Positions 17,489 through 46,015 of a stretch of DNA of 64,000 nucleotides are shown here, piece after piece. Within the stretch, counting starts at the first letter, position 1, and every line of letters starts with the position of its first letter. The DNA is taken from the NCBI GenBank assembly GCA_007129945.1, contig SKUN01000087.1, forward strand, positions 21,985-85,984, given 5' to 3'. Made by a program: the position numbers and the translations under genes. Under the pieces are notes generated by a model. It was not told the DNA's origin and did not search any database. It saw only the letters and a program-made list of their open reading frames with translations. The stretch comes from Bacteroidales bacterium (GTDB lineage Bacteria; Bacteroidota; Bacteroidia; Bacteroidales; UBA7960).

Positions 17489-17709
17489 GAGCCACATCCC
17501 GTGAGAACCAACAACCAACAACCTCCCAACCTCGTCCTGCGGTCACCGGCTACCCCCACCATCCATAGCCCATGAGAACCAACAACCAGAGGGGGCGCAG
17601 CCCCGAACAAACCAACAACCTCCCAGCCTCGTCCTGCGGTCACGGGCTACCCCCACCATCCATAGCCCATGAGAACCAACAACCGGAGGCGCGAAGCGCC
17701 GACCAACCA
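17489..17709. repeat. Intergenic mosaic repeat locus R1: ~97-bp unit in about 2 tandem copies plus two GC mini-hairpins
   Basis: ACCAACAACCTCCCA..CTCGTCCTGCGGTCAC.GGCTACCCCCACCATCCATAGCCCATGAGAACCAACAACC starts at 17514 and again at 17611. Hairpins GGGGC-GCA-GCCCC (17592-17604) and GGCGC-GAA-GCGCC (17688-17700). Confidence 0.85.
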
Positions 17710-18267
17710 TTACAACCCAATCTCAGGCCCCACTTTTTTCATGGCATTCAGCGAGATCTCCACAAACTCCTGTAAACTTATCCCCAGTTTCTCACACTCC
17801 CTGATGGTATCTCTGTTCACAGATGCAGCAAACGCCTTTTCCTTCATCCGTTTGGTGATCGATTTGGGTTTCACGCTGGCCACCTTCTTGTCAGGATATA
17901 CCAGGGCCGTGGCGGTGATCAGACCGGTAATGGTCTCCCCGGCAGCCAGTGCGTAATGCAGTGGCTTATGCCTTTCCTGCCCGTGCGCCGCCTCTTCGTT
18001 ATGTAGCTTAACAGCCTCAACAATATCGGGAGCAATTCCCTTCTGCTCCAGCATTTTCGCACCCTCCAGGGCATGTACTTCGGGATCTGCACCGGTAATT
18101 TCCACATCCACATCATGCAGCAAGCCCGCAAGCCCCCAGTGATCAGGGTCTTCTCCCAGGCGCTCTGCCAGCGCCCTGAGCACAGCTTCCGATGCCAGGC
18201 AGTGGGCGATCATTTTTTCATTTTTTACATGGGTTTTCAGTAATTCTAAAGCTTCTTCTCTCTTCAT
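17710..18267 (-). CDS. HD-domain metal-dependent phosphohydrolase
   Basis: 185 aa. H...HD motif (AGLLHDVD) in a small all-helical protein. Confidence 0.7.
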   Translation of the reverse strand: MKREEALELLKTHVKNEKMIAHCLASEAVLRALAERLGEDPDHWGLAGLLHDVDVEITGADPEVHALEGAKMLEQKGIAPDIVEAVKLHNEEAAHGQERHKPLHYALAAGETITGLITATALVYPDKKVASVKPKSITKRMKEKAFAASVNRDTIRECEKLGISLQEFVEISLNAMKKVGPEIGL

Positions 18268-18480
18268 GGGAGTTGTTTTAAATCAATATGGGATTTGTTT
18301 TAATCAATTCAACCGTTAATCAACCAGATACACATATGTGCCCGTGGTATCAGCATCCTGCAAATATAGGGCAAAGCACCCGATTCATCCAAATCTGTGC
18401 CGGATCATCCGCCATCATAGGTTTTGCGGAGACAAATAAAATATATTGTCATGTTTTGTAAATTGCAATAATTAAATGTG

Positions 18481-18488
18481 TACCTTTG
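18481..18488 (+). promoter_or_regulatory. Candidate -7 box TACCTTTG (with TTTG at 18455-18458) for the DEAD-box helicase gene
   Basis: Matches TAnnTTTG with a -33-like TTTG 22 nt upstream. Implies a ~150-nt 5' UTR. Confidence 0.4.
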
Positions 18489-18641
18489 CAGCGATAATTG
18501 CAAGAGTTGGGTTTTTACTTGCCCGTTTTCAGAACAAGCGTTACACGCTCCGCAGTCTAATCTCTCCACCTCACCATTTCCTTTTATCATAAATAATTCG
18601 CCGTGCACAAGCACAGGCAATCACTATTATACATTATACAA

Positions 18642-19910
18642 ATGACAACTTTTCAGAATCTGAATTTATCAGCGCCCCTTTTGCAGGCGTTAAAAGGCAA
18701 AGGTTACAAAACACCCACACCCGTTCAGGAAAAAGCCATTCCGGTTATTCTTCAGGGCCGGGACATTTTCGGAAGTGCACGCACAGGCACCGGTAAAACC
18801 GCTGCCTTTGGCCTTCCCCTGCTGGACCTGCTGGAAAACAAACAGAAAGCAGGCCGCCATCCAAGGGCGCTTATTCTTGCCCCCACACGGGAGCTTGCCG
18901 AGCAGATCAGCGAGAGCATCAGGACTTACGGGAAACATACCCGCATCAGCCACACCGTGATCTACGGCGGTGTATCTCAAAAAGAACAAGTAGCTGCATT
19001 ACGCAAAGGGAAAGATATTATCGTGGCCACGCCCGGCCGCCTGCTCGATTTAATACAGCAGAAATACCTCAGCCTTCATGCCGTGGAACATTTCATCCTG
19101 GATGAAGCAGACAGAATGCTGGACATGGGATTCATCAACGACATCAAAAAAATCAGTGCCATGCTGCCGGACAACAGGCAGTCCATGATGTTTTCGGCAA
19201 CCCTGTTGCCGGCTGTAAAAAAGCTGGCCGCCACCATGCTCAGGAATCCTGTCAGTGTGGACATTGAGCCGGACACCACCCTGGACAGCTTCACCAAAGA
19301 ACAAGTATACCACATTGGCCGTGCCTCCAAGGCAGCGCTGCTGCAGCACCTGGTAAGGGAAGAAGGCATCGACCGCACCCTGGTTTTCACCCGGACCCGC
19401 AGGGGTGCAGACAAGCTGGTGAAATCACTGGCCCGGGAGGGGATCATGGCACAGGCCATCCATGGCGACAAATCGCAAAACCAGCGCCAGCGGGCGTTGA
19501 ACCAGTTCAAAAGCCACAAACTGAGCATGCTGGTTGCCACCGATGTGGCCTCAAGAGGCATTGACGTCAGCGACCTTTCCCATGTGATCAATTATGACAT
19601 GCCCGAACAGGAAGAAACCTATACCCATCGCATCGGACGCACAGGCCGGGCAGGAAAAGACGGCATAGCCTATTCATTCTGCAGCCCGGAAGAAAAACTG
19701 CTGCTTAAGGGCATCCAGCGATTTACGGGTAAAAATATTCCCGTGGGCAAAATCCCCGCCGAGTTACCTGTAGCCGAAGCAACTCCCATGCAGCATTTCT
19801 CATCCAGACCATCGGGATCGAAACAAAGCAAAGGAAGTAACGGGAACAAACAGAACTTCAAGCGTAAGAACAAACATTCACGCCGCGAAGTCGGAGCAAG
19901 GATGGCCTGA
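18642..19910 (+). CDS. DEAD-box ATP-dependent RNA helicase with a basic C-terminal tail
   Basis: Q motif (TPTPVQ), AxTGTGKT, DEAD (ILDEADRM), SAT, HRIGRTGRAG. ATG 18642 (MTTFQNLNL) is preferred to the GTG at 18603. Confidence 0.9.
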   Translation: MTTFQNLNLSAPLLQALKGKGYKTPTPVQEKAIPVILQGRDIFGSARTGTGKTAAFGLPLLDLLENKQKAGRHPRALILAPTRELAEQISESIRTYGKHTRISHTVIYGGVSQKEQVAALRKGKDIIVATPGRLLDLIQQKYLSLHAVEHFILDEADRMLDMGFINDIKKISAMLPDNRQSMMFSATLLPAVKKLAATMLRNPVSVDIEPDTTLDSFTKEQVYHIGRASKAALLQHLVREEGIDRTLVFTRTRRGADKLVKSLAREGIMAQAIHGDKSQNQRQRALNQFKSHKLSMLVATDVASRGIDVSDLSHVINYDMPEQEETYTHRIGRTGRAGKDGIAYSFCSPEEKLLLKGIQRFTGKNIPVGKIPAELPVAEATPMQHFSSRPSGSKQSKGSNGNKQNFKRKNKHSRREVGARMA

Positions 19911-19967
19911 ACCGGCCCGGATTGATCATGCCCCGGCGAAATCCAGCGGCAGGATCTCCGGCCCCTT

Positions 19968-21056
19968 CTAACCATCATACGACGGATAATCCACAAAGCC
20001 TTTGGGACCTCCATGGTAAAATGTATCCTTATCAGGTTCCGCCAGGGGAAGTTCTTCCTTTAACCGGCGGACCAGGTCAGGATTGGATATATAAGGTTTG
20101 CCGAAAGCAATCAGATCGGCATGGCCCTGATCCAGCATCTGCCGTGCACTTTCCCCGCTGTGCCCTCCGCAGGAAACAAGGGTGCCGTTATAGCTATTTC
20201 TGTAATAAGGCACAATGGATTTTTTCTGACCGGAAAGCCGTTCTTCAGGGGTCATCATTTCACTCAGGTGGAGGTAAGCCAGGTCGTACTGGTTGAGCCT
20301 GTCGATGATATACCCATAGGTCTGCTCCGGTTGGCTGTCTGCCATTCCCGGTTTAACCGAACGTGGCGACAGGCGCAAACCCGTTCTTGAAGCAGGTGCA
20401 TATTTCAGTACCTCGTCGATCACTTCAAACAGGAAACGGGCCCGGTTTTCAACCGTGCCGCCATATTCATCCGTCCGTTGATTGGTCCCATCCATAATGA
20501 ACTGATCAATCAGGTAGGCGTGTGCCCCGTGGATCTCCACCCCGTCAAAACCAGCCGTCATGGCGTTTTTTGCAGCCATTCCAAAATCCCGGATGGTGGC
20601 CCTGATCTCTGCGGCCGAAATTGGACGGGAGGACTCGTAGGGCAAGCGCCCTTCGGGTGTAAACACCTCCCCCTGCGGACAAACGGAGGAAGCCGCCACC
20701 GGTGCTTGCTGATCCGGCTGCAATAAAGGATGCGAATACGGCCCCACGTGCCATAGCTGCAGGAATATTTTACCCCCTGCTTCATGAACTTTTTCCGTGA
20801 CCAAACGCCATCCCTCAATCTGTTCAGCAGTATAGCAACCCGGCGTACCGGTGTATCCGAATGCCTGCTGAGATATCTGGCTGCCCTCTGCAATGATCAA
20901 TCCGGCGGAAGCCCGCTGCACATAATATTTCGCAATGAGGTCATTTGCCCTGAGTGAGGGTTCCGTGGCGCGGCGTCTTGTCATGGGTGCCATCACTACC
21001 CTGTTCGCCAGCATCAATTCGCCTGATTTAAATGGCTCAAAAAGTCTGTGCATCAT
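19968..21056 (-). CDS. Old Yellow Enzyme-family NADH:flavin oxidoreductase / alkene reductase
   Basis: 362 aa. N-terminal ...LANRVVMAPMTR and GFDGVEIHGAHAYLIDQF are typical of the OYE family. Confidence 0.85.
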   Translation of the reverse strand: MMHRLFEPFKSGELMLANRVVMAPMTRRRATEPSLRANDLIAKYYVQRASAGLIIAEGSQISQQAFGYTGTPGCYTAEQIEGWRLVTEKVHEAGGKIFLQLWHVGPYSHPLLQPDQQAPVAASSVCPQGEVFTPEGRLPYESSRPISAAEIRATIRDFGMAAKNAMTAGFDGVEIHGAHAYLIDQFIMDGTNQRTDEYGGTVENRARFLFEVIDEVLKYAPASRTGLRLSPRSVKPGMADSQPEQTYGYIIDRLNQYDLAYLHLSEMMTPEERLSGQKKSIVPYYRNSYNGTLVSCGGHSGESARQMLDQGHADLIAFGKPYISNPDLVRRLKEELPLAEPDKDTFYHGGPKGFVDYPSYDG

Positions 21057-21104
21057 TAATTCAGATTAATATTCACAACATCCGTTGTCTTTTCGGAAAA
21101 TTTG

Positions 21105-21112
21105 TACATTTG
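21105..21112 (+). promoter_or_regulatory. Candidate -7 box TACATTTG driving the asnA leader
   Basis: Perfect TAnnTTTG. Its end (21112) is 28 nt upstream of the leader ATG. The octamer is identical to the one before the his leader. Confidence 0.5.
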
Positions 21113-21140
21113 ATCTGTTGCAATAAATAAACAACCGATC

Positions 21141-21188
21141 ATGGCCCGGTTTTTCCTCAACAATAATAACAATAACTGTCCACCTTAA
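21141..21188 (+). promoter_or_regulatory. Asn-rich leader peptide ORF (MARFFLNNNNNNCPP*)
   Basis: Six consecutive Asn codons at 21159-21176. It is followed by a terminator and then asnA. Confidence 0.7.
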
Positions 21189-21224
21189 CAACAGGCGGTT
21201 GCTTTGTTATGCCCGATATTTTAC

Positions 21225-21252
21225 AGCCCGCCTTTTGGCGGGCTTTTTTTTT
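21225..21252 (+). terminator. Attenuator terminator upstream of asnA
   Basis: AGCCCGCC-TTTT-GGCGGGCT followed by a 9-T run. It lies 25 nt before the asnA ATG. Confidence 0.8.
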
Positions 21253-21277
21253 GCACACCCCGCAAATCCGATTCACC

Positions 21278-22288
21278 ATGGCAAAAGCCAAAAATATCCT
21301 GGAAACAGAAAAAGCAATAGAAGCGGTCAAACAAACATTTGAGCAGCAACTATCAAAAAACCTGAACCTGAATAAAGTTTCTGCCCCGATCGCGGTGCTG
21401 GAACACACCGGCTTAAATGACGAATTGAACGGAGTGGAAAGGCCGGTTTCTTTCAGGATCAAGGCGTTGCAAAACCAGCGGGCTGTGATCGTTCACTCAC
21501 TAGCCAAATGGAAGAGACTGAGGCTGAAAGAACTCGAGATAAACCGCGGCCAGGGCATCCTGACCGACATGAAGGCTTTACGGCCTGATGAAGACCTCTC
21601 TTCCATTCACTCAATATTTGTGGATCAATGGGACTGGGAAAAAACCATCTCCCCCGCAGACCGTAACCTGACATACCTGAAAGCCACCGTAGTTCAGATC
21701 TACGAAGCCATCAAGACAACTGAAGACAGTATATGCCTGTCAGAACCGGACATCAGGCCATTGTTGCCCGATCAGATCACCTTTATTCACGCGGAAGAAT
21801 TGTTACAGCGGGATCCCCTGTTGACTCCGAAAGATAGAGAAAAAAGGATCTGTAAGGAATATGGCGCTGTTTTCATTATTGGTATCGGAGCCCCCTTGTC
21901 AAACGGTAAACCCCACGACGGACGGGCCCCGGATTATGACGACTGGAGTTCAGAAAATGAAGAAGGCTTCACGGGACTCAACGGAGACATATTGTGCTGG
22001 CATCCCCTGCTGAAGAATGCATTTGAACTGTCATCCATGGGCATAAGGGTAGACCCGGGTGCATTAGACAGGCAGCTGGAATTACGGGCCTGCCAGGAAA
22101 AGGCCGCTTACCCCTTTCACCAGATGCTGCTCCGGGGAGCGCTTCCGGAAAGCATTGGTGGTGGCATTGGCCAGTCCAGAATGTGCATGCAGCTATTACA
22201 AAAGGCCCATATTGGCGAGGTTCAATCCGGCATCTGGCCGGAAAACGAAAGAGAACGACTCTGCAAACAGGGAATCTGTATTTTATAA
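21278..22288 (+). CDS. asnA: Aspartate--ammonia ligase (asparagine synthetase A)
   Basis: MAKAKNILETEKAIEAVKQTFEQQL..., 336 aa, class-II aaRS-like AsnA sequence. ATG 21278 is preferred to the track start at 21209, which would run through the terminator. Confidence 0.9.
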   Translation: MAKAKNILETEKAIEAVKQTFEQQLSKNLNLNKVSAPIAVLEHTGLNDELNGVERPVSFRIKALQNQRAVIVHSLAKWKRLRLKELEINRGQGILTDMKALRPDEDLSSIHSIFVDQWDWEKTISPADRNLTYLKATVVQIYEAIKTTEDSICLSEPDIRPLLPDQITFIHAEELLQRDPLLTPKDREKRICKEYGAVFIIGIGAPLSNGKPHDGRAPDYDDWSSENEEGFTGLNGDILCWHPLLKNAFELSSMGIRVDPGALDRQLELRACQEKAAYPFHQMLLRGALPESIGGGIGQSRMCMQLLQKAHIGEVQSGIWPENERERLCKQGICIL

Positions 22289-22331
22289 AAAAAGCCGTAT
22301 ATTTACTAATACCAAATACAAATACGGCAAG

Positions 22332-22913
22332 ATGAAGATAACTGGCCCTGTTATACTGCTGTCATTGCTTTTTCTTCTGGCTTGCGACAGCGAAATAGAA
22401 ACCATCCGGGTTGAACGGAACAGTTCACTCATTTTCAGCGTGGAGGGATATGAAGAGCCCTGGAAAAGCAGTAACGCAACGCTGCTAAAAGGCAGGTCGG
22501 TTGTGCAACATATCCCGGGCGATCCCCCGGTCAGTGTATTCTTAACCAGACATTTCCTGGTATTTGAAGGCCGCACACCCGGCAACAAGCCCTTCGAAAT
22601 AATCATTACCCTGGATCTGGCTGACACGGATGATCTCCGGCACACTTACACGGCCGCATACCGCAAAGACAAAGGGGGGCTTTACCAGATTTCATTGATT
22701 ATCACCGAAAGCACAAGTCCGTTTGAGTACACAACAGCAGAACTGTGCGGGGAAACATTGGAGGATGCATTTTTCCGGATCGATCGTCATCATGAGGAGG
22801 AGAGCCTCATTGCAGGAAGCATGGAAGCAATCTTATGCAAAGAAAATGACCCTGAACAAAAGTTTATCTTATATGATGCGACTTTCAAAGACATTCGGTT
22901 AGAAACCAATTAA
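22332..22913 (+). CDS. Hypothetical lipoprotein
   Basis: MKITGPVILLSLLFLLAC has a lipobox. 193 aa with no family recognised. The track start at 22155 overlaps asnA and is rejected. Confidence 0.55.
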   Translation: MKITGPVILLSLLFLLACDSEIETIRVERNSSLIFSVEGYEEPWKSSNATLLKGRSVVQHIPGDPPVSVFLTRHFLVFEGRTPGNKPFEIIITLDLADTDDLRHTYTAAYRKDKGGLYQISLIITESTSPFEYTTAELCGETLEDAFFRIDRHHEEESLIAGSMEAILCKENDPEQKFILYDATFKDIRLETN

Positions 22914-22920
22914 CAGATAT

Positions 22921-24419: not shown

Positions 24420-24458
24420 ACCGGTGATTGCCGTCAACACTCCGGATTCAGGGGATAA

Positions 24459-24497
24459 AGAAGGGGGAGACACACGCTGTGTGCATCCCCCCTCTTC
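24459..24497. terminator. Imperfect long hairpin between convergent genes
   Basis: Outer stem GAAGGGGG/CCCCCCTCTTC and inner stem CACAC-GCT-GTGTG. The minus-strand side is followed by CTTTAT. Confidence 0.4.
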
Positions 24498-24519
24498 ATA
24501 ATCACAAATAAGGGATAAA

Positions 24520-27261: not shown

Positions 27262-27465
27262 TTTTTGTTGTGTTTTGATTAGTATATTGATGATTTTAAA
27301 AGCCCTGTAAAGGTTTCAAAATTAATGTTTTTTGTGAATTCTTGACTGCAATGACAGGAATTCATGACTGTATTGATCCAAAAAGGGAGGTCAATCCTGG
27401 TTTTTTTAATAAACTGTTGTTTATATCAGAAAAAGTACTTACCATTGCAAATCAATACGGAAACA

Positions 27466-27534: not shown

Positions 27535-27575
27535 TACGACTATGTGCTGAAAAAATAATATATAATTTCAACCTG

Positions 27576-27604: not shown

Positions 27605-27607
27605 ATC

Positions 27608-28438: not shown

Positions 28439-28443
28439 ACGCC

Positions 28444-32090: not shown

Positions 32091-33294
32091 CGGACACATT
32101 CAGGCTCCCCCTTCCAAAAGTGCTGCACAACGGGCCATTGCCATTGCCACGCTGGCAAAAGGCACCTCGGTAATTATCAGGCCCGGAGACTCCGATGATG
32201 TAATGGCGGCCACGGATGTTTCCCGCACACTGGGGGCATCTGTTGAGCAATGGGGTCGAAATCTGCACATTGCAGGTGGAATCCACCCTCCGGAAGCCCC
32301 GCTGCATTGCCGGGAATCAGGGTTGAGCATCCGGATGTTTGCGGGGATTGCCTCTATCTTTTCTGAAGAATTGCAGATGACCGGGCAGGGGAGCCTGTTA
32401 AAGCGTCCTATGGAAGTAGTGGCAACATCATTACAGGCATTGGGCGTTCACTGCAAAACCACTGCAGGAAAACTTCCGATTTATATCTGCGGGCCCATTA
32501 AAGGCGGGGATGTAAGCATCGACGGATCCCTTAGCTCCCAGGTTCTCACCGGCATTCTCATTGCCGCCCCCTTTGCAGAAAAAGAACTCACCCTCCATGT
32601 CAGCCAGCTGAAAAGCAAGCCCTATATCGACCTCACCATGGATGTGATGAGAGCCTTCGGGGTTGAAGCAATCAACGATAATTACGAACACTTCACCATC
32701 CCTTCCGGCCAACATTACAGTGCCTGCCGGTATACCGTGGAAGGTGACTGGAGCGGGGCAGCTTTCCTGCTGGTTGCCGGGGCCATTGCCGGAAAAGTTG
32801 TTGTAGACAACTTAAACCCCCGTTCTTCACAGGGCGATAAGGGAATCCTGGAGGCGTTAAAAGCTTCGGGCGCCTCAGTCAATGTGGCGGGCGAAGTGAT
32901 CCGCGTAGAAAAACACAAACTGAACGCTTTTTCTTTTGACGCCACTGACTGCCCGGATCTTTTCCCGCCCCTTGCAGCATTGGCCGCACATTGCCATGGG
33001 ACAAGCAGAATCCGGGGAGTCAGCCGGCTGCGGGCAAAGGAAAGCGACCGGGCCGCCACACTGATGGATATTTTCTCCAAAACGGGCATCGCCATCCGCC
33101 TTGAAAAGGACACCATGCTGGTGGAAGGCGGGAAACCACAAGCAGCCACCGTGGAGTCACACGGCGATCACCGCATCGCCATGGCCGCCGCGGTAACCGC
33201 CTTGAACGGCACAGGACCGGTACACATTGAAGGGGCAGAAGCAGTAAATAAGTCTTACCCCGGGTTTTTCAAAGACCTTGCGAACATTACATAG
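32059..33294 (+). CDS. aroA: 3-phosphoshikimate 1-carboxyvinyltransferase (EPSP synthase)
   Basis: 411 aa. APPSKSAAQRA, LRAKESDR and HGDHRIAMA motifs. Confidence 0.92.
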   Translation: MKKKSLPSAVDGHIQAPPSKSAAQRAIAIATLAKGTSVIIRPGDSDDVMAATDVSRTLGASVEQWGRNLHIAGGIHPPEAPLHCRESGLSIRMFAGIASIFSEELQMTGQGSLLKRPMEVVATSLQALGVHCKTTAGKLPIYICGPIKGGDVSIDGSLSSQVLTGILIAAPFAEKELTLHVSQLKSKPYIDLTMDVMRAFGVEAINDNYEHFTIPSGQHYSACRYTVEGDWSGAAFLLVAGAIAGKVVVDNLNPRSSQGDKGILEALKASGASVNVAGEVIRVEKHKLNAFSFDATDCPDLFPPLAALAAHCHGTSRIRGVSRLRAKESDRAATLMDIFSKTGIAIRLEKDTMLVEGGKPQAATVESHGDHRIAMAAAVTALNGTGPVHIEGAEAVNKSYPGFFKDLANIT

Positions 33295-33314
33295 AGCCCA
33301 AAACCAGGGCGACT

Positions 33315-33413
33315 GGCGATCGTCCACATAGCAATGAACAAGCCAGGAGGCAGGGCACCGGCGATCGTCCAAATAGCAATGAACAAGCCAGGAGGCAGGG
33401 CACCGGCGATCAT
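33315..33413. repeat. Locus R2: 45-bp tandem repeat, 2.2 copies, between aroA and aroC
   Basis: GGCGATCGTCCA(C/A)ATAGCAATGAACAAGCCAGGAGGCAGGGCACC starts at 33315 and 33360, with a partial copy at 33405. Confidence 0.9.
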
Positions 33414-33432
33414 ACACCCCGGGGGTTTTTAA

Positions 33433-33440
33433 TAACTTTG
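33433..33440 (+). promoter_or_regulatory. Candidate internal -7 box TAACTTTG just upstream of aroC
   Basis: Matches TAnnTTTG, 17 nt before the aroC ATG and immediately after the repeat. Confidence 0.3.
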
Positions 33441-33456
33441 CAAAAATTATCCTCTT

Positions 33457-34619: not shown

Positions 34620-34676
34620 ATGATTTATTCAATCCACCATATGCACCATCATACAACCCCCCGCAAAGGGTGTTGA
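34620..34676 (+). promoter_or_regulatory. His-rich leader peptide ORF 1 (MIYSIHHMHHHTTPRKGC*)
   Basis: 5 His codons lie within 6 codons (34635-34652). Confidence 0.7.
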
Positions 34677-34711
34677 ACGGTGCTGTCGTGGATTTTTCAT
34701 AATTCCAATTA

Positions 34712-34750
34712 GCAGAAAGCCCCGGGAAACACCCGGGGCTTTCTGCTTTT
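34712..34750 (+). terminator. His attenuator terminator 1
   Basis: Perfect 15-bp stem GCAGAAAGCCCCGGG / CCCGGGGCTTTCTGC, loop AAACA, followed by TTTT. Confidence 0.85.
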
Positions 34751-34840: not shown

Positions 34841-34921
34841 ATGATCCTGACCCATCAAACCCATCATATACATCATCTGCGCCAGAGGCGGCGGACCGGG
34901 TCGGGTATGATAAGTAGTTAA
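34841..34921 (+). promoter_or_regulatory. His-rich leader peptide ORF 2 (MILTHQTHHIHHLRQRRRTGSGMISS*)
   Basis: 5 His codons lie within 8 codons (34853-34876). Confidence 0.6.
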
Positions 34922-34944: not shown

Positions 34945-34980
34945 AAAGGGACCCGCCGCTTCAGGCAGGTCCCTTTTTTT
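34945..34980 (+). terminator. His attenuator terminator 2
   Basis: AAAGGGACC...GGTCCCTTT outer stem with an inner GCC/GGC, then 7 T. It lies 22 nt before the hisG ATG. Confidence 0.8.
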
Positions 34981-35866: not shown

Positions 35867-36300
35867 GTAACATTCGACCCACCCGACCCCGTCGGGGTCG
35901 GAGTAATATGTGACCCCGTCGGGGTCAGAAAAGCAAACGTCCAGTACAAATAGCCACGAACATGAGGCCACTTGGGGGTCGGAAAAACAAACAACCAACA
36001 ACCGCTTCGCCCGTTTATCAAGCTATTGGCAGCTTTCCTGACCATGGCCAATGAGAACCAACAACTGTCGGCGCTGCGCGCCGACCAACCCATAAAACCA
36101 CATAACAATGAGCCAACGATCCAAAAACCGTCCGACCCCGAAGGGGTCACCCGTCACTAACCCCGGCCAACGATCACAGAGCCCTAAGAACCCGAAGGGG
36201 TCACCCGTCACTAACCCCGGCCAACAGCCTGATGACCCTCAGACCCCGAAGGGGTCAAACATCACTTACCCTCCGACCCCACCGGGGTCGCACATCACCA
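35867..36300. repeat. Locus R3: array of GACCCC-NNN-GGGGTC hairpins plus shared mosaic modules, between hisG and the conserved part of hisD
   Basis: Hairpins at 35883-35901, 35911-35927, 36134-36148, 36188-36202 (degenerate), 36242-36256 and 36274-36290. GTCGGCGC-TGC-GCGCCGAC at 36067-36085. An identical 35-mer occurs at 36137-36171 and 36191-36225. Confidence 0.88.
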
Positions 36301-37562: not shown

Positions 37563-37581
37563 TCATTAAAAACCCATTACC

Positions 37582-39309
37582 ATGCGCTTTGACCTGCAAT
37601 CATTGATCCCGGAACATATCGCGGAACTGACCCCGTATTCCTCAGCCAGAAATGAATTTGAAGGCAGCGGCTCCGTCTTTCTGGATGCCAATGAATTACC
37701 GGATGCTTTTCCCGGAATGCCTCCCGGCGTGAACCGCTACCCGGGCAAGGAACCACGGGAACTCAGAGAAAAACTCTCAGCGGTTAAAGGAGTGAATCAG
37801 GACAGTATTCTGCTGGGAAACGGCAGTGACGAGGTCATTGATATGATCATGCGTTGTTTCTGCCGGCCCGGTGAAGACCAGATCATGGTCTTTCCTCCTA
37901 CCTTTGGCATGTATGTGGTCCGGGCAAAGGTGAACAACCTGGGGGTGATACCCGTAAACCTTGATGAAAACTTCCGGATCAACCCGGAGAAGGCACTGGA
38001 AAACGCCACTCCTGCCACCAGGCTGATGTTTGTCTGTCATCCCAATAACCCGACCGGGAATGCGCAGACCAAAGAAACAATCATCCGCTTGCTTGAAAAC
38101 TTCAGTGGCATCGTGGTGGCTGATGAAGCCTACATCGACTTCTGCCCCGAAAAAAGCGTGCTTCCCATGATCAAAGATTACCCGAACCTGGTGGTACTGC
38201 AAACCTTCTCCAAAGCATTTGGACTTGCCGGAGCCCGTATCGGGGTGGCTTATGCATCACGGGAAATCATCGGGGTGATGCAGAAAGTAAGCTTTCCTTA
38301 CAACCTGGGGACCACTGCCATCCGGCTGGCTGAAGAAGCGCTCAACAGTTATGCCGTTCACAAAATGAACGTCAGACGGATCACGACCTCCCGCGATGAG
38401 CTGGCCGGCGTCTTCAGGGAGTTGCCGCTGACTGAAATGGTATACCCCTCGGACGCAAATTTTCTGTTGGTCAAAACAAGTAATGCCGACGAGATTTACA
38501 AACACCTGGCGCGGAACGGGATTATTGTCCGCAACCGAAGCAGGGAACCAGGATGCAGCGGTTGCCTGCGCATCACAGTCGGAACGGCTGAAGAAAACCG
38601 GCAACTGGTGGAGACCTGGGCTGCTTATGACCCGCAAATTTTGGAGAAAGAAGATCCAGATGCCTTTGCAACCGCAGGACCAACAAAGAATGCCGGACAA
38701 ATTAAACGGAGTGATGCAGGCAGTCAGACAAAAGTCCGTCAGGCCACCGTACGGCGGCAAACTTCTGAGACCGATATCACGCTCAGGATCAATCTGGAAG
38801 GAAGCGCTTACGCCAACATTCAAACAGGGATCCCGTTTTTTGATCACATGCTGGAACAAATTGCCCGGCACGGCATGATGGACCTGGAGTTGGATGCCAG
38901 CGGAGACCTGGAAGTAGACCCCCATCACACCATTGAAGACACGGCCATTTCGCTGGGCAGGGCGCTCCGGGAGGCCCTGGGTGATAAAAAAGGGATTGAG
39001 CGTTATGGGTTTGAGTTGCCCATGGATGAAAGCCGGGCCAGGGTGCTGGCAGATCTCGGCGGGCGCAGTTACCTGAAGTGGGATGTCCCACTTTCAGGAA
39101 GTCAGATCGGAACGGTACCTACGACCCTTTTTAAACATTTTTTCAGGTCATTTTCCGAAGCCGCTGCCTGCAACCTGCACATTGAAGCCTCCGGAGAAGA
39201 CGACCACCACATGATTGAAGCCGTATTCAAAGCTTTTGCCAGGGCCCTGAAGATGGCAATTGCCGGAAACAATACAGATGCTATGCCCTCCACCAAGGGG
39301 ATGCTGTAA
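37582..39309 (+). CDS. hisC/hisB: Fusion protein: histidinol-phosphate aminotransferase (N-terminal ~350 aa) plus imidazoleglycerol-phosphate dehydratase (C-terminal ~195 aa)
   Basis: The N-terminal part has LQTFSKAFGLAGARIG (PLP Lys). The C-terminal part has TSETDITL...FFDHML...DPHHTIEDT...GEDDHHMIEAVFKA. The linker is ILEKEDPDAFATAGPTKNAGQIKRSDAGSQTKVR. It is a single 575-aa ORF. Confidence 0.9.
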   Translation: MRFDLQSLIPEHIAELTPYSSARNEFEGSGSVFLDANELPDAFPGMPPGVNRYPGKEPRELREKLSAVKGVNQDSILLGNGSDEVIDMIMRCFCRPGEDQIMVFPPTFGMYVVRAKVNNLGVIPVNLDENFRINPEKALENATPATRLMFVCHPNNPTGNAQTKETIIRLLENFSGIVVADEAYIDFCPEKSVLPMIKDYPNLVVLQTFSKAFGLAGARIGVAYASREIIGVMQKVSFPYNLGTTAIRLAEEALNSYAVHKMNVRRITTSRDELAGVFRELPLTEMVYPSDANFLLVKTSNADEIYKHLARNGIIVRNRSREPGCSGCLRITVGTAEENRQLVETWAAYDPQILEKEDPDAFATAGPTKNAGQIKRSDAGSQTKVRQATVRRQTSETDITLRINLEGSAYANIQTGIPFFDHMLEQIARHGMMDLELDASGDLEVDPHHTIEDTAISLGRALREALGDKKGIERYGFELPMDESRARVLADLGGRSYLKWDVPLSGSQIGTVPTTLFKHFFRSFSEAAACNLHIEASGEDDHHMIEAVFKAFARALKMAIAGNNTDAMPSTKGML

Positions 39310-39456
39310 AACTCAAAGGATGCTCTAAAGCTCAAATATGGCCGGCCGGTGATCTGTGCGAGACTGCCGGGAAAGTAAAATCACAAAAATACAGCGCCAT
39401 CGAACCCCCGGCTGGGACACACCGGATCGCTGACAAACACACGTAATTAATCTGTA

Positions 39457-40044: not shown

Positions 40045-40766
40045 TCGCCATCCCAGCCATTGACATTATGGACGCTTCCTGCGTCCGCCTGGTTAAAGGA
40101 CGTTTTGACCAGCAAATGACCTACGACAAAAGCCCCCTCGATACCGCCCGCACCATTGAAGCGGCAGGGATCACCCATTTGCACCTGGTCGATCTGGACG
40201 GGGCCCGGCAGGGCCAACCAGTCAACTTGCAGGTGCTTGAGGCCCTGTCGAAGGAAACATCCCTGCGGATAGACTACGGCGGGGGTATCCGGAATATGGA
40301 ATCGATCTCTAAAATCCTGGAGGCCGGGGCGGAGAAAGTGAACCTGGGAACCTTCCTGTTTTCTGACCCCGACATCCCGAAACGATGCATTGACAGCTTT
40401 GGGCCCGATAAACTGATCGCCGCTGTAGACATCGATAAGGGCCGGGTGGCGGTGAAAGGCTGGCAGCAATCGACCGAAACAGATATTCACACAGCCATCG
40501 AAGCTTTGCTGAAAGCAGGCTGGCGCTACCTGTCGGTGACCGATATCAGCCGCGACGGCACCATGCAGGGCCCGGATCCCGGCTTTTACAGCCCCCTGGT
40601 AAAAATGTGGCCGGCAGCCAGGATCATCGGCGGGGGCGGGGTCGCCTCCATGAAAGACCTTGAACTGCTGAAATCCTGCGGACTCTATGCAGCCGTAACC
40701 GGCAAAGCCGTCTTTGAAGGAAAAATATCCCTCGAAGACCTCAGCCAATTTAACGATCCACCCTGA
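40041..40766 (+). CDS. hisA: ProFAR isomerase (1-(5-phosphoribosyl)-5-[(5-phosphoribosylamino)methylideneamino]imidazole-4-carboxamide isomerase)
   Basis: MIAIPAIDIMDASCVRLVKG...HLVDLDGA. Overlaps hisH by 4 nt. Confidence 0.92.
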   Translation: MIAIPAIDIMDASCVRLVKGRFDQQMTYDKSPLDTARTIEAAGITHLHLVDLDGARQGQPVNLQVLEALSKETSLRIDYGGGIRNMESISKILEAGAEKVNLGTFLFSDPDIPKRCIDSFGPDKLIAAVDIDKGRVAVKGWQQSTETDIHTAIEALLKAGWRYLSVTDISRDGTMQGPDPGFYSPLVKMWPAARIIGGGGVASMKDLELLKSCGLYAAVTGKAVFEGKISLEDLSQFNDPP

Positions 40767-40867
40767 CCCCGAACAACTAACAACCAGCCAGGGCCGTTTA
40801 CCGAACCATTGGCAGCTTTCCCGATCCATGACCCATGAGAACCAATAACTAACTAACCTTTTTGCCC
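40767..40867. repeat. Locus R4: a single ~60-nt mosaic element filling the hisA-hisF spacer
   Basis: CCCCGAACAACTAACAACC...GGGCCGTTTACCGAACCATTGGCAGCTTTCCCGATCCATGACCCATGAGAACCAATAAC shares modules with R1, R3 and R6. Confidence 0.75.
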
Positions 40868-41623
40868 ATGCTTACCAAACGAATCATCCCCTGCCTCGAC
40901 ATTAAAGAAGGACGCACCGTAAAAGGCGTCAGCTTCGGAAACCTCCGTGATGCCGGTGACCCGGTGGAACTGGCTGCCAGGTACTCCGACGAGGGGGCCG
41001 ATGAACTGACCCTGCTCGACATAACCGCCACACTGGAAGGACGCACCACCTTCCTGCGCGTGGTAGAGGAGGTGGCCGCAGCCACTTCCATCCCTTTCAC
41101 CGTCGGAGGAGGCATCGGCAGCGAAGCGGAGGTCGAAAAACTACTCTCAAAAGGGGCCGACAAAGTGTCGGTCAACACGGCGGCCCTCCGCGACCCGGCG
41201 CTCATCACCCGGCTCTCGGATGCCTTTGGGAACCAGTGCGTGGTGGTGGCCATTGATGCGAAACTCATTAATGGCCGCTGGCAGGTGGTCAGTCATGCGG
41301 GTACAAGGTTAACGGACATCGATGCCACAAAATGGGCAACAGAAGTCTGTGATCGAGGAGCCGGGGAGATTCTGCTCACTTCCTTTACGGCCGACGGCAG
41401 CCGCAAAGGCTTTTCCCTGGATATTACCAGTGCTGTGGCAACAGCCGTTCCCGTGCCGGTAATTGCCTCCGGCGGGGCCGGTATTCCAGCACATTTCCTG
41501 GATGTATTCACGCAGGGCCGGGCCGACGCCGCCCTGGCCGCAGGCATCTTCCATTACGGCGTCATCGGCATCCCCGAAGTAAAAACATTTCTGAAAAACC
41601 AAAACATCCCAGTCAGACTATGA
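40868..41623 (+). CDS. hisF: Imidazole glycerol phosphate synthase, cyclase subunit
   Basis: MLTKRIIPCLDIKEGRTVKGVSF...DELTLLDI... ATG 40868. Confidence 0.94.
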   Translation: MLTKRIIPCLDIKEGRTVKGVSFGNLRDAGDPVELAARYSDEGADELTLLDITATLEGRTTFLRVVEEVAAATSIPFTVGGGIGSEAEVEKLLSKGADKVSVNTAALRDPALITRLSDAFGNQCVVVAIDAKLINGRWQVVSHAGTRLTDIDATKWATEVCDRGAGEILLTSFTADGSRKGFSLDITSAVATAVPVPVIASGGAGIPAHFLDVFTQGRADAALAAGIFHYGVIGIPEVKTFLKNQNIPVRL

Positions 41624-41918
41624 AATTCCAAACCTTTAACACACCCAACACCCGGGAGTTCAAAACAAGAATAGCACCCCCCAAATACCCAGTCTGCATT
41701 TTCGAACCTTCGAACTCCCTTCCAGCTTCCACCTTCTACCTTCGAGCTTCCACCTTCTCCCTTCGAGCTTCCAGCTTCCACCTTCCAGCTTCCACCTTCG
41801 AGCTTCCACCTTCGAGCTTCCACCTTCCCCCTTCTACCTTCTACCCTCTACCCTCTACCTTCTACCCTCTACCCTCTACCCTCTACCTTCAACCCTCTAA
41901 CCTCCAAACTCTAACCTT
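41624..41918. repeat. Locus R5: pyrimidine-rich short-unit repeat tract (core 41701-41915) filling the hisF-hisIE spacer
   Basis: Iterated CTTCCACCTTC, GAGCTTCCA and CTACCCT/CTACCTT units. The + strand is almost all C/T. Confidence 0.88.
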
Positions 41919-42569
41919 ATGAACCTCAACAATCTCAATTTCGAAAAAACCGGCGGCCTCATCCCCGTCATCGTACAGGACGCCTCTACCAACATCGTCC
42001 TGATGCAAGCCTGGATGAATAAAGAAGCCCTTACGCAAACCCTTGACAGCGGCAAACTCACCTTTTTCAGCAGAAGCAAAAACCGGCTCTGGACAAAAGG
42101 CGAAAGTTCGGGCAATTTTCTATACCTGAAAGATCTGCTGGCCGACTGCGACAACGACTGCATCCTGGCGAAAGCCGAGCCTGCCGGTCCGGTCTGCCAT
42201 ACAGGGAAAGACACCTGCTTCGGAGAAAACAACCTGCCAGCAAAATATCAACAGACAGTTGCAACAGGCGAAACCGGCAACCCTGCTTTCCTTGAAGAGC
42301 TGGAGCAGTTGCTGAAAAGCCGGCAAGCCGCAGACCCTTCGAAAAGTTATACGGCCAGGCTGTTTGAAGCAGGGCCAAAGCGCATTGCCAAAAAACTGGG
42401 CGAGGAAGCTGTGGAGCTGGCTCTTGAAGCGGAAAGCGGAGATCCGCAACGCTTCATTGAAGAGGCCGCCGACCTGATCTATCACCTGAACGTGTTACTG
42501 ATTGCCCGGGATACGGGCTGGGAAGCGGTGATCGGAGAATTACAGGACAGATATCATCCGGGCCGGTAA
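41919..42569 (+). CDS. hisIE: Bifunctional phosphoribosyl-AMP cyclohydrolase / phosphoribosyl-ATP pyrophosphatase
   Basis: GLIPVIVQD...SRSKNRLWTKGESSGN...CHTG is the HisI part. YTARLFEAG...EEAVELALEA...EAADLIYHL is the HisE part. Confidence 0.92.
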   Translation: MNLNNLNFEKTGGLIPVIVQDASTNIVLMQAWMNKEALTQTLDSGKLTFFSRSKNRLWTKGESSGNFLYLKDLLADCDNDCILAKAEPAGPVCHTGKDTCFGENNLPAKYQQTVATGETGNPAFLEELEQLLKSRQAADPSKSYTARLFEAGPKRIAKKLGEEAVELALEAESGDPQRFIEEAADLIYHLNVLLIARDTGWEAVIGELQDRYHPGR

Positions 42570-42603
42570 TGCCCGGCTTGCCGGTGTTCCCGAAACCCGT
42601 CCG

Positions 42604-44625
42604 CTACGCCTTCATCTGTTTGAAAGCGGCCTTTACATCCTCCACCGGGGCTTTGCAATAACCCATCCCGCAAATATAGATCATGGTTTTGCCGGGCACA
42701 AATCGCTCAGCAAAAACCGGTGGCAATCCAGGCCCGTCAGACTTTCGGGCAGCAAGCAACGCATCCGGCAAAAAACGCTGCAGGAATTTCTCCGATTTTT
42801 CCGTGGCTTGCTCCCCGGTGATCACAATGGTATGGAAAGGAGCGGTGTGATGCAGCAATAAAACACCCCAGTTGGTCATGCTGTGACCATGGCTGCGCAG
42901 CAGGTCCATCATATCTTGCAGCATCCGTGAACTTCGCTGCCCCCATTCCGGTTTCTCATAATAATTGGCCAGGTAAAACAACACCCTGCCCATCACACTA
43001 TTGGAAGCAGGCATCACATTATCAAAAAACTCATAAAACGGAGAGGCCAGCTGTTCAGATTTTTTCGATGAAAATGCCAGCAGATGGGTACCTTCGGCGG
43101 CAAAGTGTTCCAGGGCATGTTCTGTCAGCATACGCGCCGTCTCCAGGTAAGGCAGGTGCATGCTCACCTCATAAAGACGCAGCAAGGCTTTCGACAAAAG
43201 GGCATAATCTTCCAGGAATCCGTCGATGGAAGCTTCACTTCCCCGCAGGGAACGGTAAAGCCGGCCATCTTCCTGCAGAGCATGATTCAGGATAAAATCC
43301 GCTGCCCGCCGGGCCTGTTGCAAAAAACGCTCCTCTCCAAACGCAGCGGATGCATCGGCCAACCCCTCAATCATCAAGGCATTCCATGCCACCAAAACCT
43401 TGTCATCCAACCCGGGCCTGACCCTGTGGCTTCGTACCTCCAGCAACTTCTTCCTGCTGCGTGCCACCAGTTTCCGTAAAGCCTTCACATCCATCTCTTT
43501 TTCCCGGGCGAAAGCTTCATCATCCGGAACCCTCAGCAGGATATTTTTATCCCCTTCCCAAAGGCCTTTCCCACCCACCTGGAAATACTCCCTGATCAAG
43601 GGGGCATCCTCACCGAGTGCCTCATCAATTTCCGGCTCCGTCCATACATAAAACTTCCCCTCTTCTCCCTCACTGTCGGCATCCAGGGCTGAATAAAAAG
43701 TCCCTTCCGGGGATGTCAGTTCCCGCTCCGTAAAAGCAGCGGTATCATACACCACTTCCCGGAACAACGGGTCAGGATCTGTTTTCCAGGCAGCTGCATA
43801 CAACGACATCAGCTGCCCGTTATCGTATAGCATTTTTTCAAAATGGGGGATCTTCCATGCCCCATCGGTAGCATATCGGGCAAACCCGCCGCCCACCTGG
43901 TCATATATGCCGCCCAGCGCCATTTTGCGCAACCCCAGCTGCACCTGTTTCAGGGCTTTTTCCTCCCCGGTTTGTTGATAATAATGCAATAAAAATAGTT
44001 GATTTACGGGCAGGGGAAATTTCGGTGCCCCTTTTGTTCCGCCTTCTGCGGCATCCATTATTCCGATCACATCCCGGTAAATCTTTGCGGCATCCTCCCT
44101 GTCAAACACAGCCTTCTGTTCTTTCACCGGCACAAAAGCAGAATCTGCGAGCCCTTTGGTGATGTTTTCAGCCTGTTGTTCCACATCCCCGTATTGGTCA
44201 TGAAAGAGTTCAGCCACACGGCCCAGGATCTCCAGCCACTGTTCCCGGGGGAAATAGGTGCCGCCCCAGAACGGCCGGCCGTCAGGCAGGACAAAACAAT
44301 TCAGCGGCCATCCGCCCCTGCCGGAAACCAGCTGCACTGCATTCATATATAAATGATCAATGTCAGGTCGCTCCTCCCTGTCCACCTTCACGCAAACAAA
44401 AAAGCGGTTCATCAGCTGAGCCACTTCTTCATCCTCAAAACTTTCCTTTTCCATCACATGACACCAGTGACAGGCCGAGTATCCGATACTGACCAGCAAA
44501 GGCTTCTGCTCCTTCCGGGCTTTGGTCAGGGCTTCTTCACCCCATGGATACCAGTTTACCGGGTTCCCGGCATGCTGCAACAAGTAAGGACTGGTCTGAT
44601 CCTGTAAATGATTTTTGGAGGCCAT
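42604..44625 (-). CDS. Thioredoxin-domain protein of the YyaL/DUF255 family (thioredoxin-like N-terminus plus six-hairpin glycosidase-like domain)
   Basis: [22 protein letters not shown]...[13 protein letters not shown]. 673 aa. Confidence 0.85.
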
Positions 44626-44727
44626 CTGATTTTATTTTTAATTAACCAACAAGTTTTGTTTACATCAGGTTTTGTTTACACGGTTAACGGAACGAGTGCA
44701 TGGCCACCCTCCGAACCCCGAAATCCT

Positions 44728-45621
44728 TTATTTGCCTATTGCTTCCTGGCCGACGGACTCCAATCTGTAATCTTCTGCAGGCTTATCCTTTAGTCCGACA
44801 TACTCCCGGCTGATTTCCCAGAGTTTTTCGGCCACTTCCATATCCCTGGCGTGGCCTGTGGTTTTGGCGATTTTCTTTTTGGCAAAATATTCTCCGGTTA
44901 CATCTTCTACCTCCGGTGAGGTGGCCAGGTAAATACTCGTCTGCGCACCCTTTTCCGGCGAGATCATAAATAAACCGAACAACCACCGGAATAACCGGGG
45001 CATTTTGTCAAACAACCTGGTTTCCACAACTCCCGGGTGAAGACAATTGACGGTCACCCCCTTATCCTCCAGGTCCCGGGCCAACTTTCTGGTAAAGAAA
45101 ATATTGGCCAGCTTGCCCTGGGCATAGGAGCGCATACTCGACCAGCGCTTTTCGCCCTCCAGGTCATTGAAGTTTACAGCAGCCTGCTTGTGCGCTGTGC
45201 TTGACACGTTCACAATCCGGGCAGGCGCACTGGCAACGATGGTATCCAGAAGCAAATTGGTCAGCAGAAAAGGAGCCAGGTGATTCACGGCGAAGTTCAT
45301 TTCGATACCGTTTTCCGACAGCTTCCGTTTGGTTTCCCAGGTACCGGCGTTATTCACCAACAAGTGCAGCCGGTCATATTTTTTACTGAACGAGGCAGCA
45401 AATTGCCGGATGGAATCAAAAGAAGCCAGGTTGCAGTGCATCACTTCCACTTCTTTGTTGCCGGTCAGTTCCGCCAACTCTTCTTTGAAGGCTTTTCCTT
45501 TGTCCATGTTCCGAACCGGAAGTACCAGACGCATTCCCTTTTGGGCAAGCGCAATGGTCGTTACCCGGCCAATGCCCGAAGTAGCACCCGTCACAACAGC
45601 CGTTTTTCCATTTAAATCCAT
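44728..45621 (-). CDS. Short-chain dehydrogenase/reductase (SDR) family oxidoreductase
   Basis: TGATSGIG cofactor motif, NNAG, and a YxxxK context (YAQGKLAN). 297 aa. Confidence 0.85.
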   Translation of the reverse strand: MDLNGKTAVVTGATSGIGRVTTIALAQKGMRLVLPVRNMDKGKAFKEELAELTGNKEVEVMHCNLASFDSIRQFAASFSKKYDRLHLLVNNAGTWETKRKLSENGIEMNFAVNHLAPFLLTNLLLDTIVASAPARIVNVSSTAHKQAAVNFNDLEGEKRWSSMRSYAQGKLANIFFTRKLARDLEDKGVTVNCLHPGVVETRLFDKMPRLFRWLFGLFMISPEKGAQTSIYLATSPEVEDVTGEYFAKKKIAKTTGHARDMEVAEKLWEISREYVGLKDKPAEDYRLESVGQEAIGK

Positions 45622-45710
45622 AGATATGATATTTGGTTAAGTTAATTTTCTCCTACCAAAGAAAACATTTATTTTCATCCATTGTTTACTTTAATACCCA
45701 TTAACCCATC

Positions 45711-46010
45711 AGGCACAAAGCGCCGACAAACCATAAAACCCATGCAACCTCCCGCAAACAACAACCACCGACCAGCAGCCCCGAACTACCCCCTTCTACC
45801 TTCGAGCTTCGAGCTTCTCCCTTCGAGCTTCCAGAAAAACCAACCAACAACTGCATTGGCCATTACCAGACCATAGACAGCTTTCCCATTCTCCGGCCCA
45901 TGAATGAGAACCAACAACCATTTAACCAACAACTGCATGGGCCGTTTACCAGTCCGTTGGTTTTCCCCCTCACTCATCCCATGAGAACCAACAACCAACT
46001 AACAACCTCC
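45711..46010. repeat. Locus R6: mosaic repeat modules in a divergent intergenic region
   Basis: Contains GCGCCGACAAACCATAAAACC, CCCCGAAC, a short CTTCGAGCTTC tract (45789-45833), GGGCCGTTTACC, and two ATGAGAACCAACAACC cores (45904-45919 and 45981-45996). Confidence 0.8.
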
Positions 46011-46015
46011 AAAAA

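Follow-up and report, generated by a model that had tools for sequence, protein, structure and literature searches.

A clade-specific family of modular repeats joined by a CA-rich linker in soda-lake Bacteroidales

Several intergenic spacers in a 64,000-nucleotide stretch of a Bacteroidales genome (contig SKUN01000087.1, positions 21,985 to 85,984; the window in what follows) are composed of short repeat modules. The conclusion that these modules constitute a previously undescribed, abundant and clade-specific repeat family, belonging to a known kind of bacterial mosaic repeat, is well supported. In a preliminary description of the window, six spacers were thought to share one vocabulary of modules. 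Five of them are members of one modular repeat family, whereas the 45-nt repeat in the sixth spacer, between aroA and aroC (R2 below), is not. According to Pfam, the flagged spacers are bordered by an S41 peptidase gene and an HD protein gene (convergent around spacer 17489-17709), by aroA-aroC, hisG-hisD, hisA-hisF and hisF-hisIE, and by the divergent genes of a short-chain dehydrogenase (SDR) and a metallophosphoesterase (spacer 45622-46015).

The members are recognized by a core sequence, ATGAGAACCAAYAAC. With not more than one mismatch allowed, seven copies of the core are present in the 64-kb window, all of them on the + strand (Table 1), compared with 0.02 matches expected from dinucleotide-preserving shuffles. 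Eight same-strand copies had been claimed; seven were confirmed, and the 'eighth', assigned to R2, was not. The sub-motifs listed together with the core were all found on the + strand only, where they had been placed or at most 1-2 nt away. Profile searches with nhmmer detected six full units of the types A and B (see below) and one partial unit in the window, none of them outside the flagged spacers, and repeat finders recovered tandem periods of 97, 54, 45 and 7/14/21 nt. The repeats are not an assembly artefact, because independent assemblies of soda-lake sediment samples (JGI, NCBI and Logan) contain the same sequence.

Module types were defined from 109 copies, which were read with their flanks. 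The family comprises five types (A, B, C, D and E) joined by a 10-nt CA-rich linker, AACCAACAAC, or by TAACC variants of it. The A and B units are C-rich, 64-71 nt long, start with the linker and end with CCCATGAGAACCAACAAC; the hallmarks of A are GSCCGTTTACC and CCATTGGCAGCTTCCCC, those of B are AGCCTCGTCCAAC and GGGCTACCCCCACCATCC. C modules have the form CCGGAG, a 5-6-bp GC stem closed by a GAA or GCA triloop or a GNNA tetraloop, then GAC(T/A/C)AACC, and the motifs CCCCGAAC and GCGCCGACCAACC... of the preliminary description are the 3' halves of such modules. D modules are GACCCC-N3-GGGGTC palindromes, which are lengthened by GTTACTAAC-type flanks, and E modules are CT-rich heptads. A conserved RNA structure in the A and B units was rejected: RNAalifold gave no consensus pairs for 34 B units and 42 A units, and with z-scores between -0.6 and -1.6 their folding was no better than that of shuffled sequences. 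In the stems of the C hairpins 98.9% of the cells were paired and ten cells contained double (compensatory) changes, a result reached by none of 500 shuffles. The folding z-score of a D pair was -4.05.

The arrays are polar: D is followed by A/B and then by C, sometimes with CT-rich E heptads. Read in the orientation of the core, D was first in 20 arrays and last in one, and C was last in 23 and first in four. An array contains 1-4 units, and head-to-head junctions between two arrays were also found. The intergenic unit periods were 64, 65, 69, 70, 71, 79, 82, 93, 95 and 97 nt. These periods do not keep a constant frame, and the interpretation of the ATGA in the core as part of a mini-open reading frame (ORF) was rejected on this ground. 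A CRISPR array was likewise rejected: the units abut head to tail, their periods (63-97 nt) are variable and there are no unique spacers, in agreement with the earlier remark that CRISPR-like regular spacing is lacking. Core sites of the integron attC type were discarded because the flanks, read by eye, do not fit GTTRRRY.

For the distribution of the family, species-representative genomes were scanned with the exact 18-mer CCCATGAGAACCAAYAAC; the contig counts are lower bounds. The 18-mer was present on at least 25, at least 22 and at least 13 contigs of the Bacteroidales metagenome-assembled genomes (MAGs) T1Sed10_123, CSSed10_126 and SRP252850_co1_85, respectively. Among the matches listed, the other multi-copy matches were on two short contigs of these samples that had been binned as Halomonas and Clostridiaceae, and the remaining matches were single and at chance level. 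In a metagenome scan multi-copy matches were obtained only in SL_3KL, SL_8KL and Ga0207421 contigs, which come from soda-lake sediment. Altogether the family is spread over numerous contigs in no fewer than four related soda-lake Bacteroidales species; the DNA of the window organism and that of T1Sed10_123 are 88-91% identical. No family modules were found in the syntenic aro-his regions of the next-closest lineages, represented by loci L091 and L092 (HisD 79% and 74% identical). The L092 spacers are short and element-free (hisG-hisD 32 nt, hisA-hisF 23 nt, SDR-metallophosphoesterase 104 nt), and the whole array at 45716-46015 is missing from the last of these. Since the syntenic regions of the next lineages lack the modules, the family appears to be confined to roughly one genus- or family-level clade.

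The preliminary description had allowed for a repeat restricted to the window or derived from a known insertion sequence (IS). Neither is the case: the family is dispersed over many contigs of related MAGs, and it has no Rfam match, no match in plasmid and phage collections and no terminal inverted repeats. With Rfam 15 there was no match in the window at the gathering threshold, and in five repeat-rich loci only tRNAs appeared at E<=1; ARAGORN found no tRNA in the window. The two contigs binned elsewhere, L014 (NZ_PWEV01000057.1, 'Halomonas sp.' MAG) and L056 (PWEO01000001.1, 'Clostridiaceae' MAG), carry typical arrays, and L056 is 84-85% identical to Bacteroidales loci. Both contigs are probably mis-binned.

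Comparison of orthologous spacers revealed how the arrays change. The spacers differ by gain, loss, duplication and swap of whole modules at linkers. Between the S41 peptidase and HD genes the window has an extra B unit where T1Sed10_123 carries a D hairpin, and T1Sed10_123 has an extra C module. Compared with CSSed10_126 (PWIY), the hisG-hisD spacer has acquired one A unit and one C module, and its C module (36066..36099) is replaced by a different C module in the relative PWHO. The hisA-hisF spacer contains one A unit in the window versus one A unit and ten C hairpins in CSSed10_126. One 5' untranslated region (UTR) holds B+B+D, B+C+B+C or C+A+C+E in three species. In another spacer two species have two A units and the third has only AACAACCAACAAC joined to TAACC, which places the gain or loss precisely at the linker; a linker-bounded gain or loss was likewise found within a gene (an epimerase gene, see below). 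Recent tandem duplicates of 64-97 nt are common, and some of them span B+C. Turnover of the slippage or recombination type at the CA linker is thus directly visible between orthologous spacers, in line with the recombination suggested earlier as one possible route.

Within one genome, units from different loci were never 90% or more identical to each other over the 49-nt variable part, and the median best match was 75%. Divergence per site was 8.5% in the core, also in units that had not been used for ascertainment, versus about 25% in the variable part.

Taking these observations together, we consider it probable that the modules are selfish or neutral composite repeats with linker-mediated turnover. 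Local change would result from replication slippage or from unequal or illegitimate recombination between the repeated linkers. Only units with an intact linker and an intact core would stay in turnover; this would keep linker and core homogeneous and would explain why these two are the best conserved parts. The seeding of new sites, including those inside genes, would require some insertion route, and the elements would be mainly selfish or neutral to the host. The units are G-poor, weakly structured and nearly stop-free, and in sense orientation they might recreate a CA-rich leader that is accepted by the Shine-Dalgarno-independent ribosomes of Bacteroidia. Such stop-poor, G-poor and leader-like units would explain the tolerance of the repeats in operons, before start codons and in protein loops. 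Several points weigh against this interpretation. No insertion with a clean empty site was caught, the 'empty' alleles retaining the linker or C remnants. The strong conservation of the 18-nt core could instead reflect a protein recognition site or a function. The loci were ascertained on the exact core rather than from whole genomes, so that copy number and the negative transposase results cover the sampled DNA only, and the gene calls behind the orientation statistics given below are crude ORF calls.

The linker also bears on a different origin. In a classical MITE (miniature inverted-repeat transposable element), that is, an IS deletion derivative with terminal inverted repeats, the AACCAACAAC direct repeats would be target-site duplications. 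Identical 10-nt direct repeats do bound the units, the linker alone is left at 'empty' sites, and short TTAGT(A/C) sequences stand inverted at the D end and the C end of arrays. MITEs are defined by terminal inverted repeats and variable target-site duplications; on the units and arrays no terminal inverted repeats were found, the units are arranged head to tail, and the supposed duplication has one and the same sequence, that of the 10-nt linker, at all sites. A related transposase was not detected in the sampled DNA, nor any similarity to plasmids or phages. A MITE origin is exceedingly improbable on this evidence.

The uniform orientation of the repeats in the window had suggested a same-strand bias. 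Among 82 arrays examined, those located between co-directional genes were in sense orientation in 19 cases and in antisense orientation in 19; a further ten arrays were between divergent and eight between convergent genes. The all-plus arrangement of the window is therefore not a rule, and the sense-strand rule was rejected. A rule based on the replication strand is opposed by mixed array orientations within a few kb. The genes flanking the arrays are diverse (transporters, an ECF sigma factor, sugar-nucleotide enzymes, tRNAs) and those bracketed by arrays are housekeeping genes; the suspected preference for biosynthetic operons is not supported. Arrays that end not more than 35 nt from a start codon are mostly in sense orientation (about 16 versus about 5). 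In the window such a sense array stands close before the hisF and the metallophosphoesterase genes. It is known that Bacteroidia rely on unstructured, A-rich leaders without a Shine-Dalgarno sequence and on Shine-Dalgarno-independent initiation (PMC6847099). The sense bias near start codons fits these leader requirements (PMC6847099), a correspondence that is suggestive only.

These data are relevant to the possibility that the modules are selected RNA or regulatory elements, such as a Rho-loading or C-rich spacer RNA, an mRNA stabilizer or processing site, a CA leader or a small RNA gene. The 18-nt core and the linker show about threefold better conservation than the other parts of the unit, the 5' UTR mentioned above holds differently composed arrays in all three species, the arrays beside start codons are mostly sense, and the units are C-rich, G-poor and unstructured like rut sites and good Bacteroidia leaders (PMC6847099). 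These observations speak for a selected function. In the preliminary description effects on operon polarity, mRNA stability or promoter supply had been suggested. The random orientation relative to flanking transcription (19:19) argues against a general role at the RNA level. The A and B units show neither covariation nor a consensus structure, there was no Rfam match even at E<=1 apart from tRNAs, arrays are also present in convergent spacers and in frame within ORFs, and they are freely lost, swapped or absent in close relatives that share the operons. Selected RNA modules are thus a very improbable explanation.

The C and D hairpins raise another alternative, in which these modules are active REP-type elements mobilized through single-stranded DNA by a domesticated HUH (RAYT) transposase or recognized by an Ssn-type GIY-YIG nuclease, A and B being passengers. 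The C modules are indeed short GC hairpins, closed by GNA triloops or GNNA tetraloops and set between conserved asymmetric flanks, and their stems are compensatory. Their reverse strand has the form NGTC-stem-loop-stem-(T)CYRG (77 perfect copies), which recalls the CGTC-tagged REPs that are reported in Bacteroidetes and have no transposase of their own (PMC3733652) and also the NTS/SRM repeats to which Ssn binds (PMC11893778). The D modules are long palindromes, and the insertions inside genes imply real mobility. The published SRM pattern HGTCWYN(0-2)YYVSBRHN(0-5)WNVSBRGN(0-2)RNCYNB (PMC11893778), however, had no match in 409 kb, the tag of the C module is AGTC, TGTC or GGTC and never CGTC, and its stems, 5-6 bp long with loops of 3-4 nt, lack A-T first pairs. 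A GTAG tag is absent from both C and D hairpins. Spread by a RAYT had been suggested in the preliminary description, and a search with E. coli RayT (phmmer against about 0.6 and about 1 Mb of family-bearing DNA translated in six frames) detected no RAYT/Y1 transposase, a single-sequence query being a weak test. A motif scan of six-frame ORFs, crude and limited to the sampled DNA, detected no GIY-YIG-like ORF, and no multicopy protein family or transposase was found beside the arrays in about 1 Mb of array-bearing DNA, likewise a weak negative. The housekeeping nature of the array-flanked genes also speaks against such an enzyme. Mobilization of the hairpins is possible, though unlikely.

The general picture of intergenic modules that form a dispersed, non-autonomous family and are comparable to REP/BIME-type elements was borne out. 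Neither by sequence, which for BOX means the lack of an Rfam 15 match, nor by defining tags was the family assigned to BOX, BIME, NIME, RPE or BrickBuilt. Compared by architecture only, it resembles the BOX elements of S. pneumoniae (boxA-boxB(n)-boxC), which are short, non-autonomous, polar modular composites with a fixed module order and a varying number of middle copies, mostly intergenic, not associated with a transposase, confined to a narrow lineage and often grouped with other repeats (PMC10969869). The family differs from BOX in several ways: its module types are more numerous, its 10-nt CA linker is universal, its C-rich middle module is mostly without structure, copies in frame within genes are documented, and the host belongs to another phylum. 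With the RAYT-associated, GTAG-tagged BIME/REP elements of Enterobacteria and Pseudomonas it shares the organization as intergenic mosaics of hairpin repeats and short motifs, the high copy number, the lineage specificity and the presence in operons. Its main units, in contrast, are non-palindromic, arranged head to tail and without a GTAG tag or alternating inverted REP pairs, and none of the A, B, C and D modules is a 20-40-nt imperfect palindrome with an unpaired GTAG-type tag. Neisseria NIME (RS units with dRS3/NTS hairpin separators) are similar in that 50-150-nt units are parted by a short conserved repeat, but in the present family the separator is a non-palindromic CA linker. The C hairpin, with its xGTC 5' tag and CYRG 3' tail, resembles CGTC-REP and SRM repeats (PMC3733652; PMC11893778) apart from the differences given above. 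As with the Rickettsia RPE, in-frame insertions are tolerated at loops of conserved housekeeping proteins (PMC10969869), and family copies in conserved genes do not disrupt the flanking domain. An RPE is a single palindromic element of about 150 bp, whereas the family consists of variable-length arrays of non-palindromic units and mini-hairpins, most copies of which are intergenic. The nearest described Bacteroidales composite repeat is BrickBuilt of Porphyromonas gingivalis (PMC4596501, PMC10969869), an intergenic element with a leader, tandem 'bricks' and a tail that is confined to a single lineage (PMC4596501). Its bricks are 23 nt long and not separated by spacers, its ends are small inverted repeats, and there are about 19 copies (PMC4596501); there is no sequence similarity, and the present family is built of several unit types and hairpin blocks and occupies many more loci.

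It was stated in the preliminary description that the copies never interrupt coding sequence. This holds for the spacers between genes but not for a D block in the hisD frame (36112-36298), the only in-frame copy in the window, or for arrays in sister genomes. In a FemAB-like ORF (L079 4753-6141, - strand) a B unit and two A-like units with 63-nt periods are read through in a frame in which the core encodes HENQQ. Where the insert is lacking, homologs have about 345 residues, whereas close relatives have 452-535, the unit number varying at the same loop. In a UDP-glucuronate-epimerase-like gene (L171 about 2680-3970, + strand) C-C-C-B-C-C modules encode in frame residues 50-148, which are an insertion relative to the solved homolog PDB 5u4q; relatives carry shorter arrays or only a CCCCGAAC..CCAACAACCAAC remnant. 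In-frame arrays of these two gene types were seen in L079, L171, L212 and L213, with lengths that vary between close relatives.

In hisD the only in-frame ATG/GTG/TTG (36108) precedes the conserved N-terminus by 61 codons. This 5' extension is the D block, which encodes TPKGS.VTNPGQ repeats, and the predicted N-terminal peptide is MSQRSKNRPTPK... Three relatives have an extension with the same start and 2-4 repeats, in CSSed10_126 and P0005 the ATG is joined directly to the last D hairpin, and at the position of the His or Asn of the window clade more distant HisD homologs have an ordinary Met. From these sequence comparisons the extension is likely to be translated. Purifying selection on it was not found, substitutions at codon positions 1/2/3 being 7/6/3 in the extension and 13/11/68 in the gene body.

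A more far-reaching interpretation than selfish or neutral turnover is that the family is a 'translation-compatible' cassette repeat specific to the Shine-Dalgarno-independent Bacteroidia. Its spread would be linker-targeted, by template switching or by an enzyme recognizing CCCATGAGAACCAACAAC, and its sense strand would rebuild a CA-rich leader at every landing site. We regard this combination as distinctly unlikely. If true, it would account for the colonization of operon spacers, 5' UTRs and protein loops, and the repeats would be a regular source of disordered insertions and N-terminal extensions, as in HisD, the FemAB-like protein and the epimerase.

The repeat features of the window are listed in Table 1. 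The truncated unit of the first spacer begins right after the stop codon of the S41 peptidase gene, and the second B unit forms, together with the preceding C module, a 97-nt tandem duplicate that is 96% identical. The hisA-hisF array, which stops 7 nt before the hisF ATG (40869), has an orthologous copy in PWHO (L053). E modules adjoin arrays also in L038, L057, L060, L080 and L085.

Table 1. Repeat features in the window (positions refer to the 64,000-nt stretch)
Feature	Position	Strand	Evidence
Core ATGAGAACCAAYAAC	17501, 17572, 17669, 36051, 40835, 45904, 45981	+	
Truncated 3' end of unit, core variant CCCGTGAGAACCAACAAC and linker	17487..17515	+	nhmmer, B profile positions 53-81
B unit 1, unstructured, C-rich, CCCATGAGAACCAACAAC end	17511..17586	+	nhmmer B E=2e-16; fold z=-1.07
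C module, GGGGC-GCA-GCCCC mini-hairpin and GAACAAACC tail	17587..17612	+	hairpin finder, fold
B unit 2	17608..17683	+	nhmmer B profile
C module, GGCGC-GAA-GCGCC mini-hairpin and GACCAACC tail	17684..17709	+	fold z=-2.65; compensatory stems across copies
R2, local 45-nt tandem repeat, 2.4 copies, aroA-aroC	33305..33411	+	
Two D modules, GACCCCGTCGGGGTC palindromes, GTAAYATGT flanks, 3' of hisG stop	35880..35930	.	fold z=-4.05
A unit, GCCCGTTTAYC..ATTGGCAGCTTTCC..CCAATGAGAACCAACAAC	35989..36065	+	nhmmer A E=1e-18
C module, 8-bp stem GTCGGCGC-TGC-GCGCCGAC and CAACCCATAAAACC tail	36066..36099	+	fold z=-3.66
D-module block, 3 x 54 nt and one further hairpin, inside hisD ORF	36108..36298	+	
CCCCGAAC (C 3'-half remnant), A unit 40771-40849 and TAACTAACC linker	40767..40861	+	nhmmer, sequence
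E array, heptads CCTTCGA/GCTTCCA, then CCTTCTA/CCCTCTA, periods 7/14/21	41700..41918	+	
Decayed C 3' halves (GCGCCGACAAACC, GCCCCGAAC) and CA linkers	45716..45790	+	sequence
Short E module, CTTCGAG heptads	45792..45833	+	
Two A units, 45840-45918 and 45922-45995	45840..45995	+	nhmmer A E=2e-14 and 5e-16
CA-rich linker tail CAACTAACAACCTCCAAAAA, reaching metallophosphoesterase ATG	45996..46015	+	sequence

The R2 repeat was rejected as a diverged family member, since nhmmer gave no match to the A or B profile even at E<=10 and since, among the fetched loci, it was found only at its own orthologous site in the sister species (L053). It is absent in CSSed10_126 (PWIY), where the gap between aroA and aroC is 8 nt, and in L092, where the two genes overlap. 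The last approximately 40 nt of aroA (about 33255 to the stop at 33294) recur in diverged form between R2 and the start of aroC (33412-33456). R2 is best read as a separate, local junction duplication.

Other repeats and ORFs in or near the spacers are also distinct from the family. A 100-codon ORF (41620-41922) runs through the E array and overlaps the hisF stop and the hisIE start with an ATGA at each end, an arrangement that had suggested translational coupling. It was rejected as a coupled gene because its frame closes after 30 codons in CSSed10_126 (PWIY), and it is probably a fortuitous product of stop-poor, CT-rich DNA. The hisF-hisIE spacer consists of low-complexity repeats in four lineages (window 41624-41918, L089 15249-15388, L091 15385-15583 and L092 15100-15305), thus also in L091 and L092, which are without the repeat family; L092 has 47-nt CT/A-rich repeats and L091 repeats in the G-rich complement orientation. 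The spacer appears to be a long-lived minisatellite site. L091 carries its own unrelated repeats in his spacers at 9788-10000 and 14420-14631 (GGCTTTTGGCTTTTAGCTATTGGCTGTTGGC; CCTCTGCGAGCCTCTGCGA), and the spacers of the his operon seem to serve generally as sites where repeats land or expand. Small tandem repeats of two copies each, likewise not related to the family, are present at the hisB-hisH junction (19 nt, 39299-39336) and upstream of the HD gene (22 nt, 18266-18308).

Upstream of hisG there are two tandem His-rich leader ORFs (MIYSIHHMHHHTTPRKGC and MILTHQTHHIHHLRQRRRTGSGMISS; 34620-34676 and 34841-34921 in the window), each followed by a GC hairpin and a T run (terminator-like hairpins 34711-34750 and 34945-34980). 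Both ORFs are kept in CSSed10_126 and L091, and L092 shows only one. The region, for which Rfam gave no His_leader match, has the appearance of a double histidine attenuator.

Descriptions of mosaic interspersed repeats are plentiful for Proteobacteria and Firmicutes but scarce for Bacteroidota. For the latter the present family is a well-delimited case whose module grammar is clear and whose origin can be dated, one clade having the family and the syntenic regions of the next lineages being without it. The arrays have practical consequences as well. They produce spurious ORFs of 100-160 residues and wrong start calls, and they break assemblies, since many matches sit at contig ends. The repeat could be used as a contamination marker, as it flags probably mis-binned contigs such as those assigned to 'Halomonas' and 'Clostridiaceae'. 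The in-frame copies illustrate how selfish repeats can add disordered segments to housekeeping enzymes. If the link to leaders is true, the family would also be a natural experiment on what is tolerated upstream of start codons in Bacteroidia.

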